Both the position numbers and the translations under genes were made by a program. The notes under the pieces were generated by a model. That model worked only from the letters and a program-made list of their open reading frames with translations. It was not told the origin of the DNA and made no database searches. A stretch of DNA of 64,000 nt from a virus (lineage: Duplodnaviria; Heunggongvirae; Uroviricota; Caudoviricetes), in the IMG/VR virus record IMGVR_UViG_2724679293_000007, positions 1 to 64,000 of that record; one strand, 5' to 3'. Each line of letters begins with the position of its first letter. The stretch's first letter is position 1. Positions 1 through 13,027 of the stretch are shown piece by piece.

Positions 1-192
1 CGGGCGCAGGGGGTGGATGCTGCTATAGAAGCTGCAAAAAATCTGGTGGCCCAAGAATATGAGTATAAGGATTTCAAAGCGGCGCAGAGTGATTGCTGTA
101 TGTACCCTGGTTCAGACCTGGTAGGGAAGGTTGAAATGACTGAGTGGTTAGTTGACTTTGCTGCCCAGCTTCGCAAAGGAGGCAACCAGTGA
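1..192 (+). CDS. hypothetical protein, 3' fragment (gene starts upstream of window)
   Basis: Frame 1 open from window edge to TGA at 190-192; stop overlaps GTG start of next gene (GTGA coupling). Confidence 0.35.
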   Translation, partial: RAQGVDAAIEAAKNLVAQEYEYKDFKAAQSDCCMYPGSDLVGKVEMTEWLVDFAAQLRKGGNQ

Positions 193-917
193 GCGAAATT
201 AATTACCAGGCACTGCGTGAGGTGGCGGAACGTGCAATTCCAGCAATGGAACGCCTGTTAATGTTGCCAGCTGATGATGATTTGTTAAGTGAACAGGAAC
301 TTAAAGATTACGGTGTGGATATTGATGCGCTCAATGCCTTCAAATTTCTGACCGGACCAGAAACCGTGCTGGCACTACTGGATGAACGGGAAAGAAACCA
401 GCAATACATCAAACGCCGCGACCAGGAGAACGAGGATATTGCGCTTACGGTTGGGAAGCTGCGCGTTGAGCTTGAAGCAGAAGAGAAAACATCAGCAGCT
501 AGACTTGAGGCGCTCGACCGCACCCACAAAATGTTCCAACGGGAACAATGCAGGGCAGAGGCCGCAGAGAAGCGTATTGCTGAACTGGAGAAAAGCGAAG
601 AGCAACTCATTAACGAGCGTGACCATGCTGAGTCTGCTTTAGCTGATATGTATTTTGCAGCAACCGGGGATAGGCCTGAGTGGAGTAACTGGTTCGGTTT
701 TTCAGATGCAGTAGATGCCGTAGTTGACAGAATTGCTGATTTAGAAGCTAAACAGCCATCGCCAGTAGTACCTGAAGGACTGATTAAAGCGGTGCGTTTT
801 TATGAGCAGGTAAAGCGTGAGAATCCGCCAGTCGAAACCGGAGCATGGAAAGACGCTGTTGACTGGGTGCTCAAAGAGGCTTGCCAGTCTGTAAACATTG
901 GCATCAAAGGAGAGTGA
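189..917 (+). CDS. hypothetical phage protein (242 aa), coiled-coil rich
   Basis: ORF track; GTG start preceded by AAGGAGG; first gene of co-directional operon. Confidence 0.55.
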   Translation: MSEINYQALREVAERAIPAMERLLMLPADDDLLSEQELKDYGVDIDALNAFKFLTGPETVLALLDERERNQQYIKRRDQENEDIALTVGKLRVELEAEEKTSAARLEALDRTHKMFQREQCRAEAAEKRIAELEKSEEQLINERDHAESALADMYFAATGDRPEWSNWFGFSDAVDAVVDRIADLEAKQPSPVVPEGLIKAVRFYEQVKRENPPVETGAWKDAVDWVLKEACQSVNIGIKGE

Positions 918-918
918 T

Positions 919-1434
919 ATGGCGTTAACACACCGCGAACTCTGTCAGATTGCGTACAAGTTCCTTAAGCGCAACGGGTTCAAGGTTTGTTTTCATGACC
1001 GCTTTATAGCTGTAACCAGTACCGGAGAATAGCCAGATGCTATGGGATTCAGAAATTCAGCATCATGCCTGATAGAGGCGAAGTGTTCTCGTGCTGACTT
1101 GTTGGCAGATAGAAAAAAGCGTTTTCGTAAAAATCCGTCTCTTGGAATGGGCGACTGGCGATTCTTTATTAGTGAGCCGGGAATTATTTCAATTGAGGAT
1201 TTACCACCTGGCTGGGGATTACTTCACGTTGTTAACGGAAGAGTACGGAAAGTACATGGGTGGCCCAAGGGTAATTGCTGTTGGGGTAATCCTGACGATA
1301 AGCCATTTACTGGAAATAAGCAGGTTGAATGCGATTACATGTTATCTGCATTAAGGCGCATGGAGTTGAGAGGGCACCTTAATGAAATATATGACGGTGT
1401 AATTGTTAATAAGAAAGAAGGAAACGCGGCATGA
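919..1434 (+). pseudogene. PD-(D/E)XK-like nuclease-fold gene interrupted by in-frame amber codon (TAG 1030-1032); downstream part is ORF 1042-1434
   Basis: ATG 919 and ORF 1042 are in the same frame separated by a single TAG; joined product has D...E-x-K spacing (FHDRF ... IEAKCSR) typical of restriction-endonuclease-like fold. Confidence 0.4.
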
Positions 1435-1895
1435 TCACTATTACCAATAAGAAACAGTATCCCAGCGAGCAATATCTTAATGAGCTGATCACCAACATAG
1501 AGTTTGCTGCAAGGGCACCAGTTGAAGTCGTGAGAGCAATGGCAGCAGAGCTACAGAAGCGGCGCGAAGCTGATAGTGCAGAACCAGTTGCTTATATTTT
1601 CAAACATCCGGCCGGGAAATTATTCTGGGCTTTAACGGATGAAAGCAATAAAGAGCAAGCGGACGTTATTCCTGTTTATGCTGCCGCGCCTGCGTCGGTT
1701 GTGCCGGATAATGCATCAGAGCCTCTTGCTTATGCTTACAAAGAGCTTACGCCTGAGATTATGCGCAACCATTTAGCTGTATTCGAGCGATATGGAATAG
1801 CCCCAAACGATAGCACTACCACAATTCAGGCACTGCGAATCGCGCTGGATGGTATAGAGCGGAGCGACGCCATGCTTCAGGGTAAAGGAGGGTGA
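1431..1895 (+). CDS. hypothetical phage protein (154 aa)
   Basis: ORF track; ATGA overlap with upstream stop. Confidence 0.55.
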   Translation: MITITNKKQYPSEQYLNELITNIEFAARAPVEVVRAMAAELQKRREADSAEPVAYIFKHPAGKLFWALTDESNKEQADVIPVYAAAPASVVPDNASEPLAYAYKELTPEIMRNHLAVFERYGIAPNDSTTTIQALRIALDGIERSDAMLQGKGG

Positions 1896-1896
1896 T

Positions 1897-2106
1897 ATGG
1901 CTATTGCCGCAAGTTACACAATGCATCTCTATTGTGACTGCCGCCAGTGTACGGAAGGTGTATATCCAGTGCCAGACTTCGGTGAGTATATCGGTACGTC
2001 ATGGGCTGGCTGTGCAAAAGAGGCGCGCAAGGATGGCTGGCGAATAAGCAAAGACAAAACGCGTGCTTTTGCGCCCGGGCATAAAGTTTTGAGGATTAAC
2101 AAATGA
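1897..2106 (+). CDS. small Cys-rich protein (69 aa), possible zinc-binding
   Basis: ORF track; CxC..C..C pattern; GAGGG RBS. Confidence 0.45.
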   Translation: MAIAASYTMHLYCDCRQCTEGVYPVPDFGEYIGTSWAGCAKEARKDGWRISKDKTRAFAPGHKVLRINK

Positions 2107-3940: not shown

Positions 3941-4854
3941 CCAGAATCACTGAAGAGCGTATATCAGAGATTATTTCCCGTATCGAAATGTATGGTCACG
4001 GTGCTGGATATACGGCAGATGAAGTATTGGCACTTGCCCAAATGACTTTGGCGGCTTGCAAAGATGATAAAAAAATGAAGCTTATCGACTTGTTAGTGAA
4101 GGAGCTGCCTAAGTGCGGCGGGTGGCCTGATGGAATGAGTTATTGTTACCTACCCAGTGTCAATTTAATGGCACCATGCGCGACTTTTGCTTTTGGCTCA
4201 GACCACAAAAAAGACACTTTCTTTGGGCGCAATTTTTGTTGTGAGATTGAGCTTCCAATTGGTGACCTTGATAGCGATGAATACCAGTCAGTTGTCACTC
4301 GCGAACAATACGAATCAGCTCTCATAGCGTCGCAGAAAGTCGAGTTCAATGGTGATGAACTTGAAAGTAAGACTTACAGGTTGGATTTTGGGCAATGGCT
4401 GGAACAGCAACGCGGGAAAATCGATGTGGACTGTGGTTGTGTGTCCACTGAAACATTCATGCACTGGCTGCGGGTAGCTTACGAGGCTGGCAACTATCCG
4501 GATATTCCGGATAGTTCGGTGCCAGCGCCAGGAAAGGGCGTCACCGGTGAACGTATCCGAATTAAGCCGCATGTTTATCGCGAACTGGTTAACCGCCTCC
4601 ACGATACAGCGGTCAAGTGTGCTGGCACCCAGCAATTACGAGAAAGAATTAGCCGTGTTTTGGGCGACGTTATTACGCCAGATCATCATAAACAAGCCGA
4701 GAAAAGTGACCTGGAAAGGTGTCACCTTGAGGCGGCATTAAACATTAAGCCGGGGCATACGCTTGGCATTATTGATGCACTGTTGGTTCATAAGATGGCC
4801 AGGGCTTTATTGTCGTTGGTGGACGCTGGTGATACAAGCGAGGGTGAAGTATGA
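3922..4854 (+). CDS. hypothetical phage protein (310 aa)
   Basis: ORF track; overlaps neighbours at both ends. Confidence 0.55.
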   Translation: MAQKEMTRITEERISEIISRIEMYGHGAGYTADEVLALAQMTLAACKDDKKMKLIDLLVKELPKCGGWPDGMSYCYLPSVNLMAPCATFAFGSDHKKDTFFGRNFCCEIELPIGDLDSDEYQSVVTREQYESALIASQKVEFNGDELESKTYRLDFGQWLEQQRGKIDVDCGCVSTETFMHWLRVAYEAGNYPDIPDSSVPAPGKGVTGERIRIKPHVYRELVNRLHDTAVKCAGTQQLRERISRVLGDVITPDHHKQAEKSDLERCHLEAALNIKPGHTLGIIDALLVHKMARALLSLVDAGDTSEGEV

Positions 4855-5213
4855 GAGTTGCAGATCACATCAAACACCTTGAAAGAATTATCGAAAACGG
4901 TGAACTCTTAAGAGATCAGATGAGACGCACGGCAGAAGCCAGGGAGGCGATAATCCGCAGTCAGGCTGGTAAATTAAAGCAATTGTCAGAGATTAACACG
5001 CTATACAAGAACAGACGTAACCGGGCGGTGATGCGGCTTCAGAAAGCACGTAATGAAATTAAATTGGTGGAGGCAAAACTGAAAAAACAGATCCAGCGTT
5101 ACGATCAGCAAGATGCTTTTTATGCCGCCATCAAGGCGGCTGCTAATGAAATAGGCATCTGGAAGTTGCTGGTGGAGAAAGCAAAGACGAAGTTAAATGC
5201 CAACGAAAGCTGA
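4851..5213 (+). CDS. hypothetical coiled-coil protein (120 aa)
   Basis: ORF track; ATGA overlap; last gene of + operon. Confidence 0.5.
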   Translation: MRVADHIKHLERIIENGELLRDQMRRTAEAREAIIRSQAGKLKQLSEINTLYKNRRNRAVMRLQKARNEIKLVEAKLKKQIQRYDQQDAFYAAIKAAANEIGIWKLLVEKAKTKLNANES

Positions 5214-5288
5214 ACTACAGGTGCCCACCAGCACATACAGAAAATGATTGTTTCCACATCAAGGAGATTTTAATGTTTCACTGAAACA

Positions 5289-5426
5289 TTAAGTAAGCCA
5301 GTGCATAATTCCATTTTTTACTGACCTTAAAAGCAAAATCAAAACGATGATGAGGATAATAGCCAGAATCTGGCTAATAATAGGCGCATCTAAAAATGCA
5401 CTCAGGAACTGAAAAAAAGCGTTCAT
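5289..5426 (-). CDS. possible small hydrophobic protein (45 aa), candidate type I toxin-like peptide
   Basis: Minus-strand ATG 5426-5424 to TAA; MNAFFQFLSAFLDAPIISQILAIILIIVLILLLRSVKNGIMHWLT; AGGA upstream; sits in a 1-kb otherwise non-coding region. Confidence 0.25.
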   Translation of the reverse strand: MNAFFQFLSAFLDAPIISQILAIILIIVLILLLRSVKNGIMHWLT

Positions 5427-5468
5427 TCAGGTGGTTCCTTGTCAAATGTAAAGGTGCACTTGCTCACG

Positions 5469-5497
5469 TTGACGTAGAAACCCAACCCCTATATAGT
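5469..5497 (+). promoter_or_regulatory. sigma70-like promoter (TTGACG-17bp-TATAGT)
   Basis: Hexamers at 5469-5474 and 5492-5497 with 17-bp spacer. Confidence 0.3.
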
Positions 5498-5587
5498 TGG
5501 ATTCGGTGAATGAAAGTCGTTAACGTGAGCTTACGGCACATGTTTTCGGAAAAACATCAGGGAACGGCTAATTCCTTGATGCGGGTG

Positions 5588-5614
5588 GGGTCTGTAATGC
5601 AGACCCTATCTATT
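5588..5614 (+). terminator. possible intrinsic terminator (GGGTCTG-TAATG-CAGACCC then U-rich)
   Basis: 7-bp perfect stem, 5-nt loop, followed by TATCTATT; about 110 nt after the putative promoter. Confidence 0.3.
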
Positions 5615-6288
5615 AACGTCATGATTGCATCTCAAATTTTCTCCTTATCTTCAATTAATCTACATTCATTTCATCTGTTAGCCACCACAATATGTAGAAA
5701 ATGGCCCTCTTGCAAGTGCATAACTTTGTGGATAACTCAGGAAGGAAAAAGTGGCTTTCGCGCACCTTCGGTCAGACAAGGTGTCCGGGAAAGTCAACGC
5801 AAAGAAAAAAATTGTTAAAAATAACGTTTGTTGGAATTGTATATTTTTATCCCCTTCAATGGTTAGCATTCTATTAACATCTTTTTTTAGAGACAGAAAA
5901 ACATATCGTAACAACATATATACAGTGTTAAGAGGCGAGTATTATCCTGCGGTGGGAATTCTGGGCGCTGTTAGATTCGACTTTCTCAGCAGGATTACAT
6001 CGTCAACTTGCGACGTTGCCGTATGACTTTCGTGTGATAGGTGACAATGATGCGGCTAGTGAGTTACTTGTGAAGTTTTTCGGAAAAGGTTTTGTGGCCT
6101 CGGATCTTGATGAGCTACAGCAACATGAAGTGTCTAATTTGATTTTTAGCCATAGCCAATAAGCCTCCCTCCTCCATCAAGGCCACAATTTGTGACCTTA
6201 AACAATTTGTTTTCTGCTTTTTCTTATTTGAGAAAATAACGTTGTTGACAGCTAATAGGCTCGTTGTTGTTATACATGCCTGTATAGA

Positions 6289-6645
6289 TTATGACCGTAA
6301 ATTATTAGCGGATTTTAAGCCATATTCACCGTTGTAGAAATTACTTATGTTCCACTCATTAGGAAGTTCTTTTCTGTCCAATGTATAGTGGCGCACGATA
6401 TAACGATCTTCATCTTCTTCGATGGACAGGCGGACATAGCCAATGTGAATCACCGATACGGGCGGTGTTCGTATTGCATAGATGTCGCGGAGATATACCG
6501 GCAGCTCGACAAATGCATCAGGTGCATCTGTGATGCTCGTTTTTTCACAGTATTCATATAACGCATCGTTGATATCGTTAAGAGATTCATGATCGTATAT
6601 TTCCAGGTAATTACCGCGATAGCGATGGTACTCGACTTTAGCCAT
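6289..6645 (-). CDS. hypothetical protein (118 aa)
   Basis: ORF track; start ATG directly abuts stop of upstream gene (TGA-ATG). Confidence 0.5.
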   Translation of the reverse strand: MAKVEYHRYRGNYLEIYDHESLNDINDALYEYCEKTSITDAPDAFVELPVYLRDIYAIRTPPVSVIHIGYVRLSIEEDEDRYIVRHYTLDRKELPNEWNISNFYNGEYGLKSANNLRS

Positions 6646-6960
6646 TCAAAATCCCCTGTTATCGTTTTGCATTTCTCTAATCCGGTTCAGAACTACTTCG
6701 TGCTGGACTTGGATAGCGGCTTTTTCGTTTTCAAGCCGGGCAATAGACATCTCTAATTCTTTGCTGTACCAGGCGAGCCGGGCCAGGTTCATCCGGTTGT
6801 GGTCGAGAGTTGGAGACACTTCGACGCGATCCCTTTCTTCCTGCTTTAATGAGAAGAGATTCATCTCATCCCTTGAGGAAAATTCAGCAACAATTTCTTG
6901 TTGATGATCCGGTCGCTGCGGCATCCTCGCCAGTATAAATGGCGGTTCTTTTGAAAACAT
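6646..6960 (-). CDS. hypothetical protein (104 aa)
   Basis: ORF track; co-directional with neighbours. Confidence 0.5.
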   Translation of the reverse strand: MFSKEPPFILARMPQRPDHQQEIVAEFSSRDEMNLFSLKQEERDRVEVSPTLDHNRMNLARLAWYSKELEMSIARLENEKAAIQVQHEVVLNRIREMQNDNRGF

Positions 6961-7014
6961 GAATGTCGGTTCAGACCGTGTTTTTACCCAGCTTGCCTGC
7001 TGTCTTTCGGCAAG

Positions 7015-7230
7015 TTAACAGGCTTCATCATAGTTATCTGCCAAACAAAGCACGGATGGACGGTCCCACGCCCCACCATTCAGACAATAAACTACAATTT
7101 TCCCGTCAGGTTGTGTAACCCCATATGGATGGTCCCACCAGGCGTCCAGCTGAGTTTTAGAGCGTTTCTCGTTAGGAGTGCAGTCAAAATTTTTGGGCAA
7201 TACAGGATCGAGAGGAATGCGATTAGGCAT
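7015..7230 (-). CDS. hypothetical protein (71 aa), divergent from humD
   Basis: ORF 7015-7464 in track runs into humD promoter; start reassigned to Met 79 (ATG 7230-7228) with AAGGAA RBS. Confidence 0.45.
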   Translation of the reverse strand: MPNRIPLDPVLPKNFDCTPNEKRSKTQLDAWWDHPYGVTQPDGKIVVYCLNGGAWDRPSVLCLADNYDEAC

Positions 7231-7364
7231 AGCTAATTCCTTATTAACTGATTGGCAACGAGGTTGCGCTGATCCGTTGGTGATGAATAGTAGCAAAGAG
7301 CACAAAATCATCAGCGGTGGTTGATGTACGTAACGCGTTTGCACCAAAGGTGTCTCTTTAATGT

Positions 7365-7384
7365 ATACTGTATAAATGAACAGT
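7365..7384. promoter_or_regulatory. LexA (SOS) box TACTGTATAAATGAACAGTA
   Basis: Perfect CTGT-N8-ACAG consensus 21 bp upstream of humD start, between divergent genes. Confidence 0.6.
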
Positions 7385-7404
7385 ATTATTGGGGTGAAAA
7401 CGCT

Positions 7405-7794
7405 ATGGGCTTCCCTTCTCCTGCGGCGGATTATGTTGAAAGCCGAATTTCTCTTGATCAGCAACTAATCAGGCATCCATCAGCAACCTACTTCATGCGG
7501 GCAGCTGATAGCCATCACCGTGAGGGAATATTGCAGGGTGCTTTGCTGGTGGTTGATTCCTCGCTTACTCCGGTTGATGGTTCTCTGCTTGTGTGCGCTA
7601 TGGAGGGTGAATATCGCATAAAGAGATACAGGAAGTATCCGCGCCAGCACCTGGAGGATTTAAGCACCGGGAAGAAAGAGGCGTTACCAGTAGATGACGA
7701 TGGATGCACGGGCAGTAATGCTGTTTTTGGTGTGATCACTCATGTCATCAATGATGCCCGAAGTGGGGAGTTTGATGATTGTCCGGTTATTTAA
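7405..7794 (+). CDS. humD: HumD, UmuD'-like translesion synthesis subunit
   Basis: 129 aa product MGFPSPAADYVESRISLDQQLIRHPSATYFMRA.. matches recalled P1 HumD; preceded by LexA box. Confidence 0.85.
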   Translation: MGFPSPAADYVESRISLDQQLIRHPSATYFMRAADSHHREGILQGALLVVDSSLTPVDGSLLVCAMEGEYRIKRYRKYPRQHLEDLSTGKKEALPVDDDGCTGSNAVFGVITHVINDARSGEFDDCPVI

Positions 7795-7835
7795 GCTGCA
7801 AAGGGCTGGTGCTTTATGCCTGTGAGGTTTATGAT

Positions 7836-7860
7836 TGTGTACACATAACGAGTACACGAG
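7836..7860. promoter_or_regulatory. phd-doc operator palindromes (TGTGTACACA / GAGTACAC)
   Basis: Two GTAC-centred palindromes just upstream of phd start. Confidence 0.45.
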
Positions 7861-7866
7861 GTGTTT

Positions 7867-8088
7867 ATGCAATCCATTAACTTCCGTACCGCGCGCGGCA
7901 ACCTTTCTGAAGTGCTCAACAATGTTGAAGCCGGGGAAGAGGTTGAAATCACCCGCAGAGGCCGTGAGCCAGCAGTAATTGTCAGCAAGGCTACTTTCGA
8001 AGCCTACAAAAAAGCGGCGCTGGATGCTGAATTTGCATCCCTGTTTGACACCCTGGACTCCACCAACAAGGAACTGGTTAACCGATAA
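7867..8088 (+). CDS. phd: Phd antitoxin (prevent host death)
   Basis: 73 aa [44 protein letters not shown].. as recalled for P1 Phd; ORF track starts at upstream GTG 7861. Confidence 0.95.
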
Positions 8089-8468
8089 TGAGGCATATAT
8101 CACCGGAAGAACTTATTGCGCTTCATGATGCGAATATAAACCGCTACGGCGGCCTGCCTGGCATGTCAGATCCGGGCAGGGCAGAGGCCATTATCGGGAG
8201 AGTCCAGGCCAGAGTTGTGTACGAAGAGATTACCGACCTTTTCGAAGTCTCCGCAACCTACCTGGTGGCTACTGCGAGAGGGCATATATTCAATGATGCC
8301 AATAAGCGTACCGCGCTAAACAGTGCGCTGTTATTTCTACGCCGTAACGGGGTGCAGGTATTTGATTCACCTGAACTGGCAGACCTTACCGTAGGGGCTG
8401 CGACCGGAGAGATATCTGTATCTTCTGTCGCCGACACGTTACGTAGATTGTATGGTTCCGCGGAGTAG
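8088..8468 (+). CDS. doc: Doc toxin (death on curing), Fic-fold kinase
   Basis: 126 aa [39 protein letters not shown]..; 1-nt start/stop overlap with phd. Confidence 0.95.
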
Positions 8469-8472
8469 ATTA

Positions 8473-8652
8473 ATGGCACGTAAATACAACAAATTGTCCC
8501 GTGAAGCGTTAAAGATGCTTCTTGATGGCGTGAGTCGCCGCGAGGTAAAGCAATACCTGGTTGGTAAGCAAATTGGTGCCAGGACCGCTATTGCTGTGTT
8601 ATGCCGTCAGGAAATGGTTGTGCTTAAACAGAGAATGCCGGGCAGCAGATAA
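8473..8652 (+). CDS. pdcA: small protein downstream of doc (PdcA-like)
   Basis: ORF 8452-8652; ATG 8473 chosen to avoid overlap with doc; named by P1 synteny. Confidence 0.45.
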   Translation: MARKYNKLSREALKMLLDGVSRREVKQYLVGKQIGARTAIAVLCRQEMVVLKQRMPGSR

Positions 8653-8679
8653 AGCCCAATCAGTGATGAAAGGTGTGAT

Positions 8680-9723
8680 GTGAAAGCCGTAATTACTCCC
8701 TTTGTACAAAAAGAGCTTGGCGTCGCCACATTCAAAGTGGATCAGGAAGTCAGAAAGCTGGTGGAGGCTGGCCGTAAATTTATTATGGAGCCGGTGCCGC
8801 GTGAGTTAATCGAGCACATGGACGACGGCCTCGTTGTTTCCGAGCAAACTATGGCAACAAATGAGGCGTTGCAGCCGTTTTTTAACAGCGATGAACTGTT
8901 TCGCCGTATTGGTGGAATTGACGCGCTGGTGGCGTGGTTGCGCAGGAAAGAGGGGCAATGCCAGGCCGCAGATCGTAGCTGGTGTGACAACCATATTGTC
9001 CACGCAGAACGAGACAATAGCGCGGTGTTGCTGTGCTGGCATCACGATAACCATTACCGGATGCGTGGTTTTAATGAGCTGAAAGAAACGCTGCATAATA
9101 ATCGCGTTAACTGGATACTGGATGTCGCCCGTCAGGAAATGGGGCTTTCAGATGGCCATGATTTAAGTATTCAGGAACTGTGCTGGTGGGCTTTCATGCG
9201 CAACATGATGCACCTGATGCCGGAAGAAGTTTACCGTATATCAATAAATAAGATGAAAGCCGCAACGCAGGATAGCGGACCTCTGAAAGAGGCGGATATT
9301 CGCCCGTATGACGATCGCGCTACAGCATATGTTCAGATGATGGAAGAACGCGCCGCGCCGATGCGTGCAAAAGTATGCCCTGTGGATGTTGACTCCGACC
9401 CTGGCATGGCGCATTTCAAAATACCAAAACTGCAATCGCTAAAATTACCTGAGTACATGGACTTTGTTGCTTCCCGTCCATGCTGTGGGTGTGGAGCGGC
9501 GGGAGCTGGCGCTCACATTACGCCTTATATCGTTCGTCATAGTCGATTATGCGCGCATGACATTTACGCAATTCCTCTGTGCCAGTCATGCCAGCGTGAT
9601 ATTGAGCGTGACCGCGATAATTGGGAGAAGACGCACGGTAGGCTGGCGATGCATCAACGATTGTTCTTTGATTACGCGCTTGGAGTCGGCGCTATCACAA
9701 GTCACTCGTCGAGCGTTAGATAA
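8680..9723 (+). CDS. pdcB: PdcB-like protein (347 aa) with Cys-rich C-terminal motif
   Basis: ORF track, GTG start; C-x2-C pairs near C-terminus; named by P1 synteny. Confidence 0.55.
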
Positions 9724-9724
9724 A

Positions 9725-9741
9725 ATTGCTCTAATGTATTG
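9725..9741 (+). promoter_or_regulatory. C1 operator (ATTGCTCTAATGTATTG)
   Basis: 13/17 match to recalled C1 operator consensus ATTGCTCTAATAAATTT; upstream of lpa. Confidence 0.6.
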
Positions 9742-9811
9742 CTATTTATTTAATCGAGAGTATTATATTCCACGTTGATTAGTTGACATGGGCTAATCAG
9801 TAGGTGACAGG

Positions 9812-10264
9812 ATGTTACTTAACTGGCAGGGACGCCACTTCATGGAAATAAATCACTCACGAATAACATCGTACGAGATTGCGGATTACATGATCCGCAC
9901 TAAATCTCTTCTATCAGCGAAAGAACTCGCAGCAATTCTTGAAAAGGAATACCCGCACCTGGATGTCGATAAGCGCGATGTTTATCTGCGCTTAAAGGCT
10001 ATCGCTGTGTCTAAGTATTCGTCTGTTTTGATTGATGACAGTACACGCCCACGTAGATTTCAGATCCACTCTCTGAATCCTGAATTCTTTCGCCGCAGCC
10101 GCGCTCCGCGCCGGTTTGATGAAAAACTCCAGAACGAACTCTATATGACGCAGGACGAAAAGGAACGCCGGGAGCACCAGCCTTGGGTAATGGCGCGTCA
10201 ACTTTTCAATAAGGTGGCCCGTCAGCACCGTCATTACGGTAATGCCACATCCGCACGTATCTGA
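9812..10264 (+). CDS. lpa: Lpa, late promoter activator (gp10)
   Basis: 150 aa ORF between pdcB and pacA under a C1 operator, as in P1; alternative start at Met 11. Confidence 0.6.
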   Translation: MLLNWQGRHFMEINHSRITSYEIADYMIRTKSLLSAKELAAILEKEYPHLDVDKRDVYLRLKAIAVSKYSSVLIDDSTRPRRFQIHSLNPEFFRRSRAPRRFDEKLQNELYMTQDEKERREHQPWVMARQLFNKVARQHRHYGNATSARI

Positions 10265-10291
10265 TTGATTGCTTGCCCGTTCCGGGCCTTT

Positions 10292-10304
10292 TGACATGTG
10301 ACTT
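10292..10304 (+). promoter_or_regulatory. late-promoter element TGACATGTGACTT upstream of pacA
   Basis: Member of the recurring AAGTNACTT-like family seen upstream of several late genes in this window. Confidence 0.35.
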
Positions 10305-10349
10305 TCGTTACCCTCGCGTCAAAAAGAGTTTTTACGAAAGGAAGCATAA

Positions 10350-11543
10350 GTGACCTGGGACGATCACAAGAAGAATTTTGCTCGCCTGGCGCGAGATGGT
10401 GGTTACACCATCGCACAGTATGCCGCCGAGTTTAATCTTAACCCTAATACCGCACGTCGTTATCTCCGTGCCTTCAAAGAAGACACCAGGACAGCGGACA
10501 GCCGCAAGCCAAATAAGCCTGTCAGGAAACCACTAAAAAGCATGATCATTGATCACGCTAATGATCAACGTGCAGGTGATCACATTGTGGCTGAAATAGC
10601 TGAAAAACAAAGAGTTAATGCTGTTGTCAGTGCCGCAGTCGAGAACGCTAAGCGCCAAAATAAGCGCATAAATGATCGTTCTGATGATCATGACGTGATC
10701 ACCCGCGCCCACCGTACCTTACGTGATCGCCTGGAACGCGACACCCTGGATGATGATGGTGAACGCTTTGAATTCGAAGCTGGCGATTACCTGATAGATA
10801 ACGTTGAAGCGCGGAAGGCCGCGCGCGCTATGTTGCGTCGGTCCGGGGCCGATGTTCTGGAAACCACTCTTCTGGAAAAGTCTCTTTCTCATCTCCTTAT
10901 GCTGGAGAACGCCAGGGATACGTGTATTCGTCTGGTGCAGGAAATGCGCGATCAGCAAAAAGACGATGATGAAGGGACTCCGCCTGAATATCGTATCGCG
11001 AGCATGCTAAACAGCTGTTCCGCGCAGATAAGCAGCCTGATCAACACCATTTACAGCATCCGGAATAACTATCGAAAAGAAAGCCGGGAGGCGGAAAAGC
11101 ACGCTTTATCTATGGGGCAAGCTGGCATTGTTAAGCTGGCATACGAACGAAAGCGTGAAAATAACTGGTCAGTGCTGGAAGCAGCTGAATTCATCGAGGC
11201 GCATGGCGGGAAAGTGCCGCCCCTGATGCTGGAGCAAATCAAAGTCGATCTGCGTGCTCCTAAGACCAATACCGATGATGAGGAAAGGCAAACAGCCGTC
11301 GGTGGCCCTTCTCTTGAAGATCTGGACAAAGTTGCGCGAGAACGGGCCGCCAACCGCCGCGCCGATGCCGCATTGTGGATTGAGCAGCGTAGGGAAGAAA
11401 TCGCCGATATCGTTGATACAGGCGGTTATGGAGATGTTGATACTGAAGGTGTATCAAAAGACCCATGGCTGGAACAAGACCTGGACGAAGACGAGGAGGA
11501 AGACGAAGAAGTTACCCGCAAGCTATACGGGGATGATGATTAA
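10350..11543 (+). CDS. pacA: PacA, terminase small subunit (pac recognition)
   Basis: 397 aa, GTG start, [28 protein letters not shown]..; contains pac site; acidic C-terminus. Confidence 0.9.
10543..10701. other. pac packaging site: two clusters of TGATCA/G hexamers (Dam sites)
   Basis: Four hexamers at 10543-10582 and three at 10673-10701 (plus one at 10734) flanking a spacer, the 4+3 architecture recalled for P1 pac. Confidence 0.8.
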
Positions 11544-13027
11544 TGGCCAGAAGTTGCGTAACGGATCCACGTTGGCGCGAGCTGGTGGCGCTATATCGTT
11601 ATGACTGGATTGCGGCCGCTGATGTTTTGTTCGGCAAAACACCTACCTGGCAGCAGGATCTGATTATTGAGTCTGTGCAGGAACAGGGTAGCAAGACATC
11701 TGTTTCGTCTGGTCACGGTACCGGGAAATCAGACATGACTTCTATCATGATCATGTTGTTCATAATCATGTATCCCGGTGCCCGCGCCATTATCGTTGCG
11801 AACAAAATTCAGCAGGTAATGACCGGTATATTCAAGTACATCAAGATAAACTGGGCTACTGCCACCAGCCGTTTTCCATGGCTTGCTGATTATTTTGTCC
11901 TGACAGAAACCGCTTTCTATGAGGTTACTGGTAAAGGTGTATGGACTGTAGTACCGAAGGGCTTTCGTCTGGGAAGTGAAGAAGCTCTCGCCGGTGAACA
12001 CGCAGATCATCTTCTGTATATTATCGATGAAGCCTCCGGTGTCAGTGATAGAGCTTTCGGTATCATCACCGGTGCTCTTACCGGACAGGATAACCGCATC
12101 TTATTGCTGTCACAGCCTACACGCCCAAGCGGCTATTTCTACGATACACACCATAAACTGGCCAAGCGTCCTGGTAACCCTGATGGCGTTTATACGGCGA
12201 TCACGCTTAACAGTGAGGAATCACCGTTGGTAACGCCAGCATTTATCAAAATGAAGCTGGCGGAGTACGGCGGGCGTGATAACCCTATGTACATGATTAA
12301 GGTACGCGGCCTATTCCCTAAATCACAGGATGGCTTCCTTCTTGGACGTGATGAGGTTGAACGTGCAACGCGGCGGAAAGTCAAGATTGCAAAAGGATGG
12401 GGCTGGCTTGCATGTGTGGACGTTGCTGGTGGTACGGGACGAGATAAGTCCGTTATCAATATCATGATGGTGTCCGGCCAGCGAAATAAACGCCGTGTAA
12501 TCAACTATCGAATGCTGGAATACACAGACGTTACAGAAACGCAGCTTGCCGCCAAAATTTTCGCAGAATGTAATCCTGAGCGATTCCCAAATATCACCAT
12601 AGCGATAGACGGTGATGGGCTGGGTAAAGCAACGGCGGATCTGATGTACGAGTATTATGGTATTACCGTACAGCGTATACGCTGGGGTAAAAAGATGCAT
12701 AGCCGTGAAGATAAGAGCCTGTACTTTGATAAACGTGCTTATGCCAACGTTCAAGCCGCAGAGGCCGTAAAATCTGGTCGTATGAGACTGGATAAGGGTA
12801 ATGAAACTATTGAGGAAGCGTCGAAAATCCCTGTAGGGATTAACTCCGCAGGTCAATGGAAGGTGATGAGTAAGGAGGATATGAAGAAAAAACTCAACCT
12901 GCACTCACCAGACCATTGGGATACATATTGTTTCGCTATGCTGGCGGATTATGTTCCCCAGGATGAAGTGCTTAGCGTCGAAGACGAAGCGCAGGTTGAT
13001 GAAGCTCTGGCATGGCTTAATGAATAA
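11543..13027 (+). CDS. pacB: PacB, terminase large subunit
   Basis: 494 aa; start overlaps pacA stop (TAATG); position as in P1. Confidence 0.85.

Follow-up and report, generated by a model that had tools for sequence, protein, structure and literature searches.

The locus at positions 919 to 1434 of the window (the whole 64,000-nt stretch of DNA analysed here) raised the question of whether two neighbouring reading frames represent one broken gene and, if so, what broke it and what was lost with it. An earlier note had described a frame that opens with ATG at 919, meets TAG at 1030-1032 and continues in phase into an ORF at 1042-1434, the joined product being 171 aa long; this layout was confirmed from the sequence. 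The whole gene (919..1434, + strand), an orthologue of P7 upf89.0, comprises 171 codons plus stop and is interrupted at codon 38. Its start codon (919-921) is preceded by a Shine-Dalgarno region, AAAGGAGAG (906..914, + strand), which was kept in all homologues and whose GGAG (909-912) lies 6 nt 5' of the ATG. The 5' part (919..1029, + strand; codons 1-37) encodes helix alpha1 (residues 5-18), strand beta1 (residues 23-26) and the conserved residues H5 and E37. The amber codon (1030..1032, + strand) is followed by codons 39-41 (Pro-Asp-Ala; 1033..1041, + strand), which supply the 'PD' of the motif discussed below and include the invariant D40 (1036-1038). The 3' ORF (1042..1434, + strand) covers codons 42-171, or 130 aa counted from Met42 at the in-frame ATG 1042-1044, and carries E53-A54-K55 (1075-1083), a helix with the SRxDF motif and the conserved residues G78, R81, W99, G100 and L101.

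The gene is tightly embedded in its operon. The upstream gene (189..917, + strand), which is Ead/Ea22-like (PF13935), ends with TGA at 915-917, 1 nt before ATG 919. The TGA of the split gene (1432-1434) overlaps, as ATGA, the ATG at 1431 of the downstream gene (1431..1895, + strand; 154 aa, no family match), and because of this overlap translation of the latter may be coupled to that of the 3' ORF. Start and stop codons closely abutted or overlapped each other throughout the operon.

A megablast search with the region matched 152 phage records. The four annotated records that were fetched (P7 upf89.0, phage EC.W1-9, Stx2 phage 1717 and Shigella phage Ss-VASD) all displayed an uninterrupted 516-nt ORF, 98.6-99.6 % identical to the window and with CAG (Gln38) at codon 38; the comparison with homologues that the earlier note had proposed thus revealed a sense codon in each. 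At the stop, the sole difference in the alignment with these copies was C versus T at position 1030, and P7 upf89.0 was identical to the window at 514 of 516 nt. The best matches among PLSDB plasmids and complete E. coli genomes were 99.8 % identical to the window gene and, in the two that were checked (NZ_CP117721.1 and NZ_CP009051.1), the single mismatch was again position 1030. The fetched loci contained 107 copies of full length; 104 of them had CAG, and each of these was open. The window copy is one step away from the commonest intact CAG haplotype and matches it at every base but 1030; the break is therefore best read as a recent point mutation, in line with the recent pseudogenisation that the earlier note had listed among its explanations. 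These alignments indicate that both ORFs belong to a single gene and exclude a chance juxtaposition. Deamination at a Dcm site was considered as the cause of the C-to-T change and rejected: the mutated C sits in AACAGCC and not in CCWGG.

P7 Upf89.0 (AAQ07564.1), gp06 of Stx2 phage 1717 and gp12 of Ss-VASD are the same gene as that of the window. These orthologues share its neighbours, with Ead/Ea22-like genes on the 5' side and DUF551-type genes on the 3' side, as well as the same overlapping start and stop signals. Copies from P7, from Stx-converting phages and from other lambdoid phages are intact, with CAG at codon 38, whereas the window copy displays TAG. For P7-type copies the only annotations were 'unknown function' and 'hypothetical protein', except for one RefSeq copy from P7 labelled 'minor tail protein', a designation for which no support was found in this analysis. 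A literature search found no paper mentioning upf89.0.

Annotation of intact copies was not always faithful to their DNA. RefSeq/PGAP calls the CAG copies of NZ_CP117721.1 and NZ_CP009051.1 (both at 1001-1516 of the fetched loci L145 and L146) a 'frameshifted' pseudogene over the first 179 nt; the former annotation adds a separate 111-aa ORF and the latter carries no feature over the remainder of the gene. In both, the DNA forms an uninterrupted 171-codon ORF. The label seems to be an artefact of annotation, passed on from reference proteins that are truncated, and such 99.8 %-identical 'frameshifted' entries, first taken as candidates for further broken alleles, were discarded as intact CAG copies.

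What the intact gene encodes was not apparent from direct searches. The joined protein displayed no Pfam match at E <= 1, no NCBIfam match at E <= 10 and no PADLOC match, and a PDB search with the single sequence returned noise only. In PHROGs it matched two strong families of unknown function and, weakly, one 'DNA repair protein' family. A family alignment of 88 sequences, reaching down to about 35 % identity, was more informative. D40, D60, G78, R81 and W99 were invariant in it; H5, E37, P39, G43, E53, K55, S57, R58, F61, D64, K67, R70, G100, L101, E137, R146 and R147, together with L8 and L16, were nearly so, P39, E53 and K55 being conserved in at least 90 % of these diverse sequences. Residue 38 was variable (Q, K, A, I, R, T and others). 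The resulting consensus, ...GE-x-PD-aiGF...liE-c-K-SR-x-DF-laD..., is a textbook PD-(D/E)XK signature. The D...E-x-K arrangement suggested earlier was correct as regards E53 and K55; its aspartate, D27 of FHDRF, was not conserved, and the aspartate of the motif is instead D40, in E-Q-P-D.

The profile built from this alignment matched the structure 3dnx (SPO1766, MmcB-like) with an E-value of 1.9e-4; D40, E53 and K55 lined up with the D...ECK-SRADF of 3dnx and with the PD...EMK of Hjc. Against Hjc resolvases the same profile reached an E-value of about 0.06, and no Hjc score exceeded a curated threshold. When members were compared singly to Pfam, 49 of the 88 displayed weak Hjc matches and 26 weak MmcB-like matches (best E 2.9e-4). 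AlphaFold2, run on the 88-sequence alignment, gave a model with a pLDDT of 94.9 and a pTM of 0.88. Its elements are ordered alpha1-beta1-beta2-beta3-alpha2-beta4, which contains the alpha-beta-beta-beta-alpha-beta core of PD-(D/E)XK enzymes; D40 lies just before beta2, as expected for the conserved aspartate at the start of that strand, and E53 and K55 form the (D/E)-x-K at the end of beta3. The whole domain matched 3dnx structurally, the two having an ECK-SRADF-AD motif in common, and Foldseek comparison with viral models retrieved phage proteins named MmcB-like. The PD-(D/E)XK fold proposed in the earlier note is thus supported by alignment, profile and model alike.

From its sequence and predicted structure, the intact 171-aa product appears to be a small protein with a PD-(D/E)XK nuclease fold and a presumed nuclease activity, D40 at the start of beta2 and E53 and K55 in beta3 being the predicted metal-binding and catalytic residues, probably helped by E37; the family would function like a minimal PD-(D/E)XK nuclease. 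SPO1766 is its nearest solved relative, and it can be considered distant kin of MmcB-like proteins. The gathering threshold of the MmcB-like Pfam family (PF06319) was reached neither by the joined protein nor by its 88 relatives. The window protein also differs from that family by C-terminal elements of its own (G78, R81, W99-G100-L101, E137 and R146-R147) and by being encoded in an early accessory operon of a phage. Similarity to archaeal Hjc (PF01870), VRR-NUC and type II restriction endonucleases was weaker than to 3dnx, and comparison with archaeal Hjc revealed no sign of junction resolution in the sequence and fold data. Pfam scans of longer, fused relatives yielded no informative partner domain, with one TniB and one DUF551 match. 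MmcB of Caulobacter is a PD-(D/E)XK endonuclease that contributes to tolerance of mitomycin C and crosslinks (PMC9578287); an SOS-regulated role in tolerance of such DNA damage is established for the Caulobacter protein only (PMC9578287).

The position of the stop is unfavourable for such a protein. A single natural C-to-T transition turned Gln38 (CAG) into amber (TAG), two codons before the invariant D40. Translation from ATG 919 would then end after 37 residues, releasing a peptide limited to alpha1 and beta1, and re-initiation at ATG 1042, if any, would give a 130-aa fragment (residues 42-171) devoid of alpha1 and beta1 of the core fold. P39 and D40 fall in the gap between both fragments and, because D40 is in neither, nuclease activity should be lost; loss of function is the outcome that sequence and model lead us to expect. 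Since the family accepts many residues at position 38, a readthrough product would probably be active. In E. coli, UAG terminates relatively weakly when a C follows, and near-cognate reading of UAG by tRNA-Gln would insert glutamine. A small amount of full-length protein may accordingly be produced from the TAG allele, with the wild-type residue at position 38. Programmed readthrough or recoding of the TAG is not supported: no conserved stop was present in the 88-sequence alignment, and TAG occurs in only ~0.3 % of copies.

The same TAG was found in at least nine other assemblies from different projects (NCBI, ENA and Logan). Both the exact 130-aa product and the exact 37-aa product were on record in a collection of 15 billion proteins, the former on 46 contigs and as a result of several different upstream lesions. 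The stop was read directly in the DNA of a 96-kb contig (L125, GCA_014980385.1), a Logan contig (L128, DRR688719) and an ENA contig (L131, ERZ2436884), as well as in chromosomal lambdoid prophages (L135-L137) and in the complete chromosomes NZ_CP074756.1, NZ_CP074760.1 and NZ_CP074819.1. A BLAST query of 60 nt centred on the stop recovered the exact TAG allele in three of 971 gene-carrying records from 5,426 complete E. coli genomes, namely the chromosomes of strains DEC9B, F2_407_2_2 and 7_33_46A, and in none of 295 PLSDB plasmids. A 39-mer scan of IMG/VR displayed no TAG against at least 120 CAG, and an exact-pattern scan of a collection with one genome per species contained no TAG allele either. 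These empty scans had suggested a private allele or an error, a view overturned by the exact-protein look-ups and the 60-mer search. The allele frequency is about 0.3 %, ~99.7 % of copies using CAG. The three complete genomes are from two bovine isolates and one human isolate and ERZ2436884 is a metagenome-style assembly; the recorded sources of carriers are all bovine, human or gut metagenome. In DEC9B and F2_407_2_2, the PGAP label of the gene is 'frameshifted; internal stop'.

TAG copies displayed at least three upstream contexts and three backgrounds differing by synonymous SNPs. This could mean that the allele spreads or recurs more than a neutral null allele would, and recombination among mosaic phages would account for the multiple contexts and backgrounds equally well. 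Taken together, the sequence records indicate that TAG is a real, natural and heritable allele.

Many recorded 37-aa 'products' do not stem from amber alleles; they are CAG copies cut off where a contig ends. Seven contigs from draft or metagenome assemblies (L138-L144) stop at one point, 112-113 nt into the gene and ~127 nt past the conserved AAAGGAGAGTGATATG, where upstream contexts diverge. These ends fit assembly breaks at k=127 on the mosaic boundary that coincides with the ribosome-binding site; such truncated CAG copies inflate the database count of '37-aa products'.

As for the replicon, the first 12-20 kb of the window were 96-98 % identical to P1-like phages and phage-plasmids (SJ46, P1, P7, RCS47 and many E. 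coli and Salmonella plasmids of about 95 kb), the matched genes including pacA, lpa, humD and c1. The classical P1 record AF234172 matched window positions 4479-11946 only and lacks the split gene. The latter belongs to a variable accessory module of Ead/Ea22-like genes, the split gene itself and DUF551-type genes, which is also found in the early-left region of lambdoid prophages; this is an 'early, non-essential' module common to lambdoid prophages and P1-like phage-plasmids. Region 906..914 is a mosaic boundary, on which the upstream contexts of different phages converge. Window positions 1-1429, that is the Ead/Ea22-like genes and the amber-split gene, differed from the prophages of DEC9B and F2_407_2_2 (loci L147, NZ_CP074760.1, and L148, NZ_CP074756.1) by a single SNP at 1290. 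In both strains the point equivalent to window position 1430 is the exact insertion site of an IS3-family element. The near-identity over 1-1429 reflects a recent exchange that followed the nonsense mutation: the module has travelled, already broken, between a chromosomal lambdoid prophage lineage and the P1-like plasmid.

The intact gene, for its part, is under purifying selection, as judged from a pN/pS of ~0.14 (56 synonymous and 29 non-synonymous variant alleles among 57 haplotypes), from the large size of its family and from the open state of all CAG copies. The family comprised 2,533 clusters at 50 % identity (exhaustive HMMER search, E <= 1e-3), and 921 of 5,426 complete E. coli genomes (~17 %) carried the gene. 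Other lesions were nevertheless encountered: a 2-bp deletion near window-equivalent position 1016 (L126), deletion fusions with junctions near 1010 and 1019 (L127 and L130), and IS insertions near 988 (L129) and in the DEC9B group. Repeated loss combined with selection is what one would expect of a prophage accessory gene that is useful yet can be dispensed with, and we infer such a gene here. The lesions of L126, L127, L129 and L130 are independent and equivalent to window positions ~988-1020, and three of the four are crowded into some 10 nt shortly before the amber codon. Such clustering may be due to chance or to ascertainment, these loci having been retrieved via the exact 130-aa product.

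Considering these data together, the window very probably holds a recent, natural and rare nonsense allele that inactivates a non-essential accessory gene, related to MmcB-like genes of the PD-(D/E)XK type, in a P1-like phage-plasmid. Several other explanations had to be weighed against it. The difference of a single base from hundreds of intact copies is what a sequencing or assembly error would produce, the true genome then having CAG and an intact gene. Such an error, which the earlier note had contemplated, is effectively ruled out by the recurrence of the same TAG in multiple contexts and synonymous backgrounds, in assemblies of independent projects; complete chromosomes match window 1-1429 save one SNP, and a random error would not recreate a known segregating allele on the matching haplotype. 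A laboratory amber allele, or expression restricted to a suppressor host or dependent on a phage-borne suppressor tRNA, had also been envisaged. Amber mutants are classical tools of P1 genetics and, given the range of residues tolerated at position 38, the product would be active whichever suppressor was at work. Against this, the classical P1 record lacks the gene, ~99.7 % of copies carry CAG, and no tRNA gene, hence no suppressor tRNA, was present within the 64-kb window; the bovine, human and metagenome origin of several carriers makes a laboratory allele very unlikely. Altogether, an artificial or suppressor-dependent allele retains as negligible a probability as an error.

Two further explanations grant the locus a residual function. 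According to one, the 130-aa product made from ATG 1042 by termination and re-initiation is a functional short protein and the upstream part is dispensable. ATG 1042 lies 10 nt past the stop with a GGAG 14 nt 5' of it, and the exact 130-aa ORF has been kept after five different upstream lesions, although that set was itself selected by this product. The missing 41 residues, however, include D40, which is invariant, and H5, L8, L16, E37 and P39, which are nearly so, together with alpha1 and beta1 of the core fold, and full-length relatives over 2,533 clusters keep the N-terminal region. No natural homologue starting at Met42 with a ribosome-binding site of its own was seen, and the case named in the earlier note as refuting a split gene, homologues that genuinely begin at ATG 1042, was thus not encountered. 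A short functional protein is therefore highly improbable. According to the other, the allele is attenuated rather than null, low near-cognate readthrough of UAG-C inserting glutamine and providing traces of nuclease, possibly to the advantage of the carrier. Full expression might be costly to a lysogen, the remaining ORF is perfect, TAG occurs in several contexts and synonymous backgrounds, and the C after the stop is a weak context for termination. The rarity of the allele (about 0.3 %) speaks against attenuation, as do the plain deletions and frameshifts of other lineages and the IS3-family insertion at the 3' end of the gene in chromosomal carriers, where this additional insertion suggests a gene that is simply decaying. 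Attenuation is accordingly unlikely, though it keeps a small chance. Its bolder form, in which Q38am is a selected 'dimmer switch' that lets tRNA-Gln readthrough supply a trace of a potentially toxic nuclease while the module spreads horizontally between lambdoid and P1-like replicons, likewise has a slim chance at best.

Inactivation by a rare nonsense mutation thus remains the preferred reading. With a sense codon in its orthologues, required residues predicted to be removed and a stop that is a real allele, the window locus qualifies as a nonsense pseudogene. Like ordinary pseudogenes of this kind in prophages, it has an ORF that is undamaged save for a stop made by one base change, and its allele is rare; its sole distinctive point is that the broken module is common to a chromosomal lambdoid prophage and a P1-like plasmid. 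Little is at stake in the amber itself, an ordinary feature that knocks out, naturally and rarely, an accessory gene the phage can do without; in other genomes this lesion already bears the RefSeq label 'internal stop'. What is new is a confident assignment of fold and active site for a very widespread family of 'hypothetical' phage and prophage proteins devoid of a Pfam model, whose presumed nuclease nature is made testable by the predicted catalytic residues D40, E53 and K55. In addition, a lambdoid prophage and a P1-like plasmid that carry the same broken module provide a clean example of recent module exchange between these phage types.

Further along the operon, a 69-aa ORF (window positions 1897-2106, + strand), without Pfam match, displays several cysteine and histidine residues (CDCRQC...); the 154-aa gene precedes it and the DUF551 gene follows.
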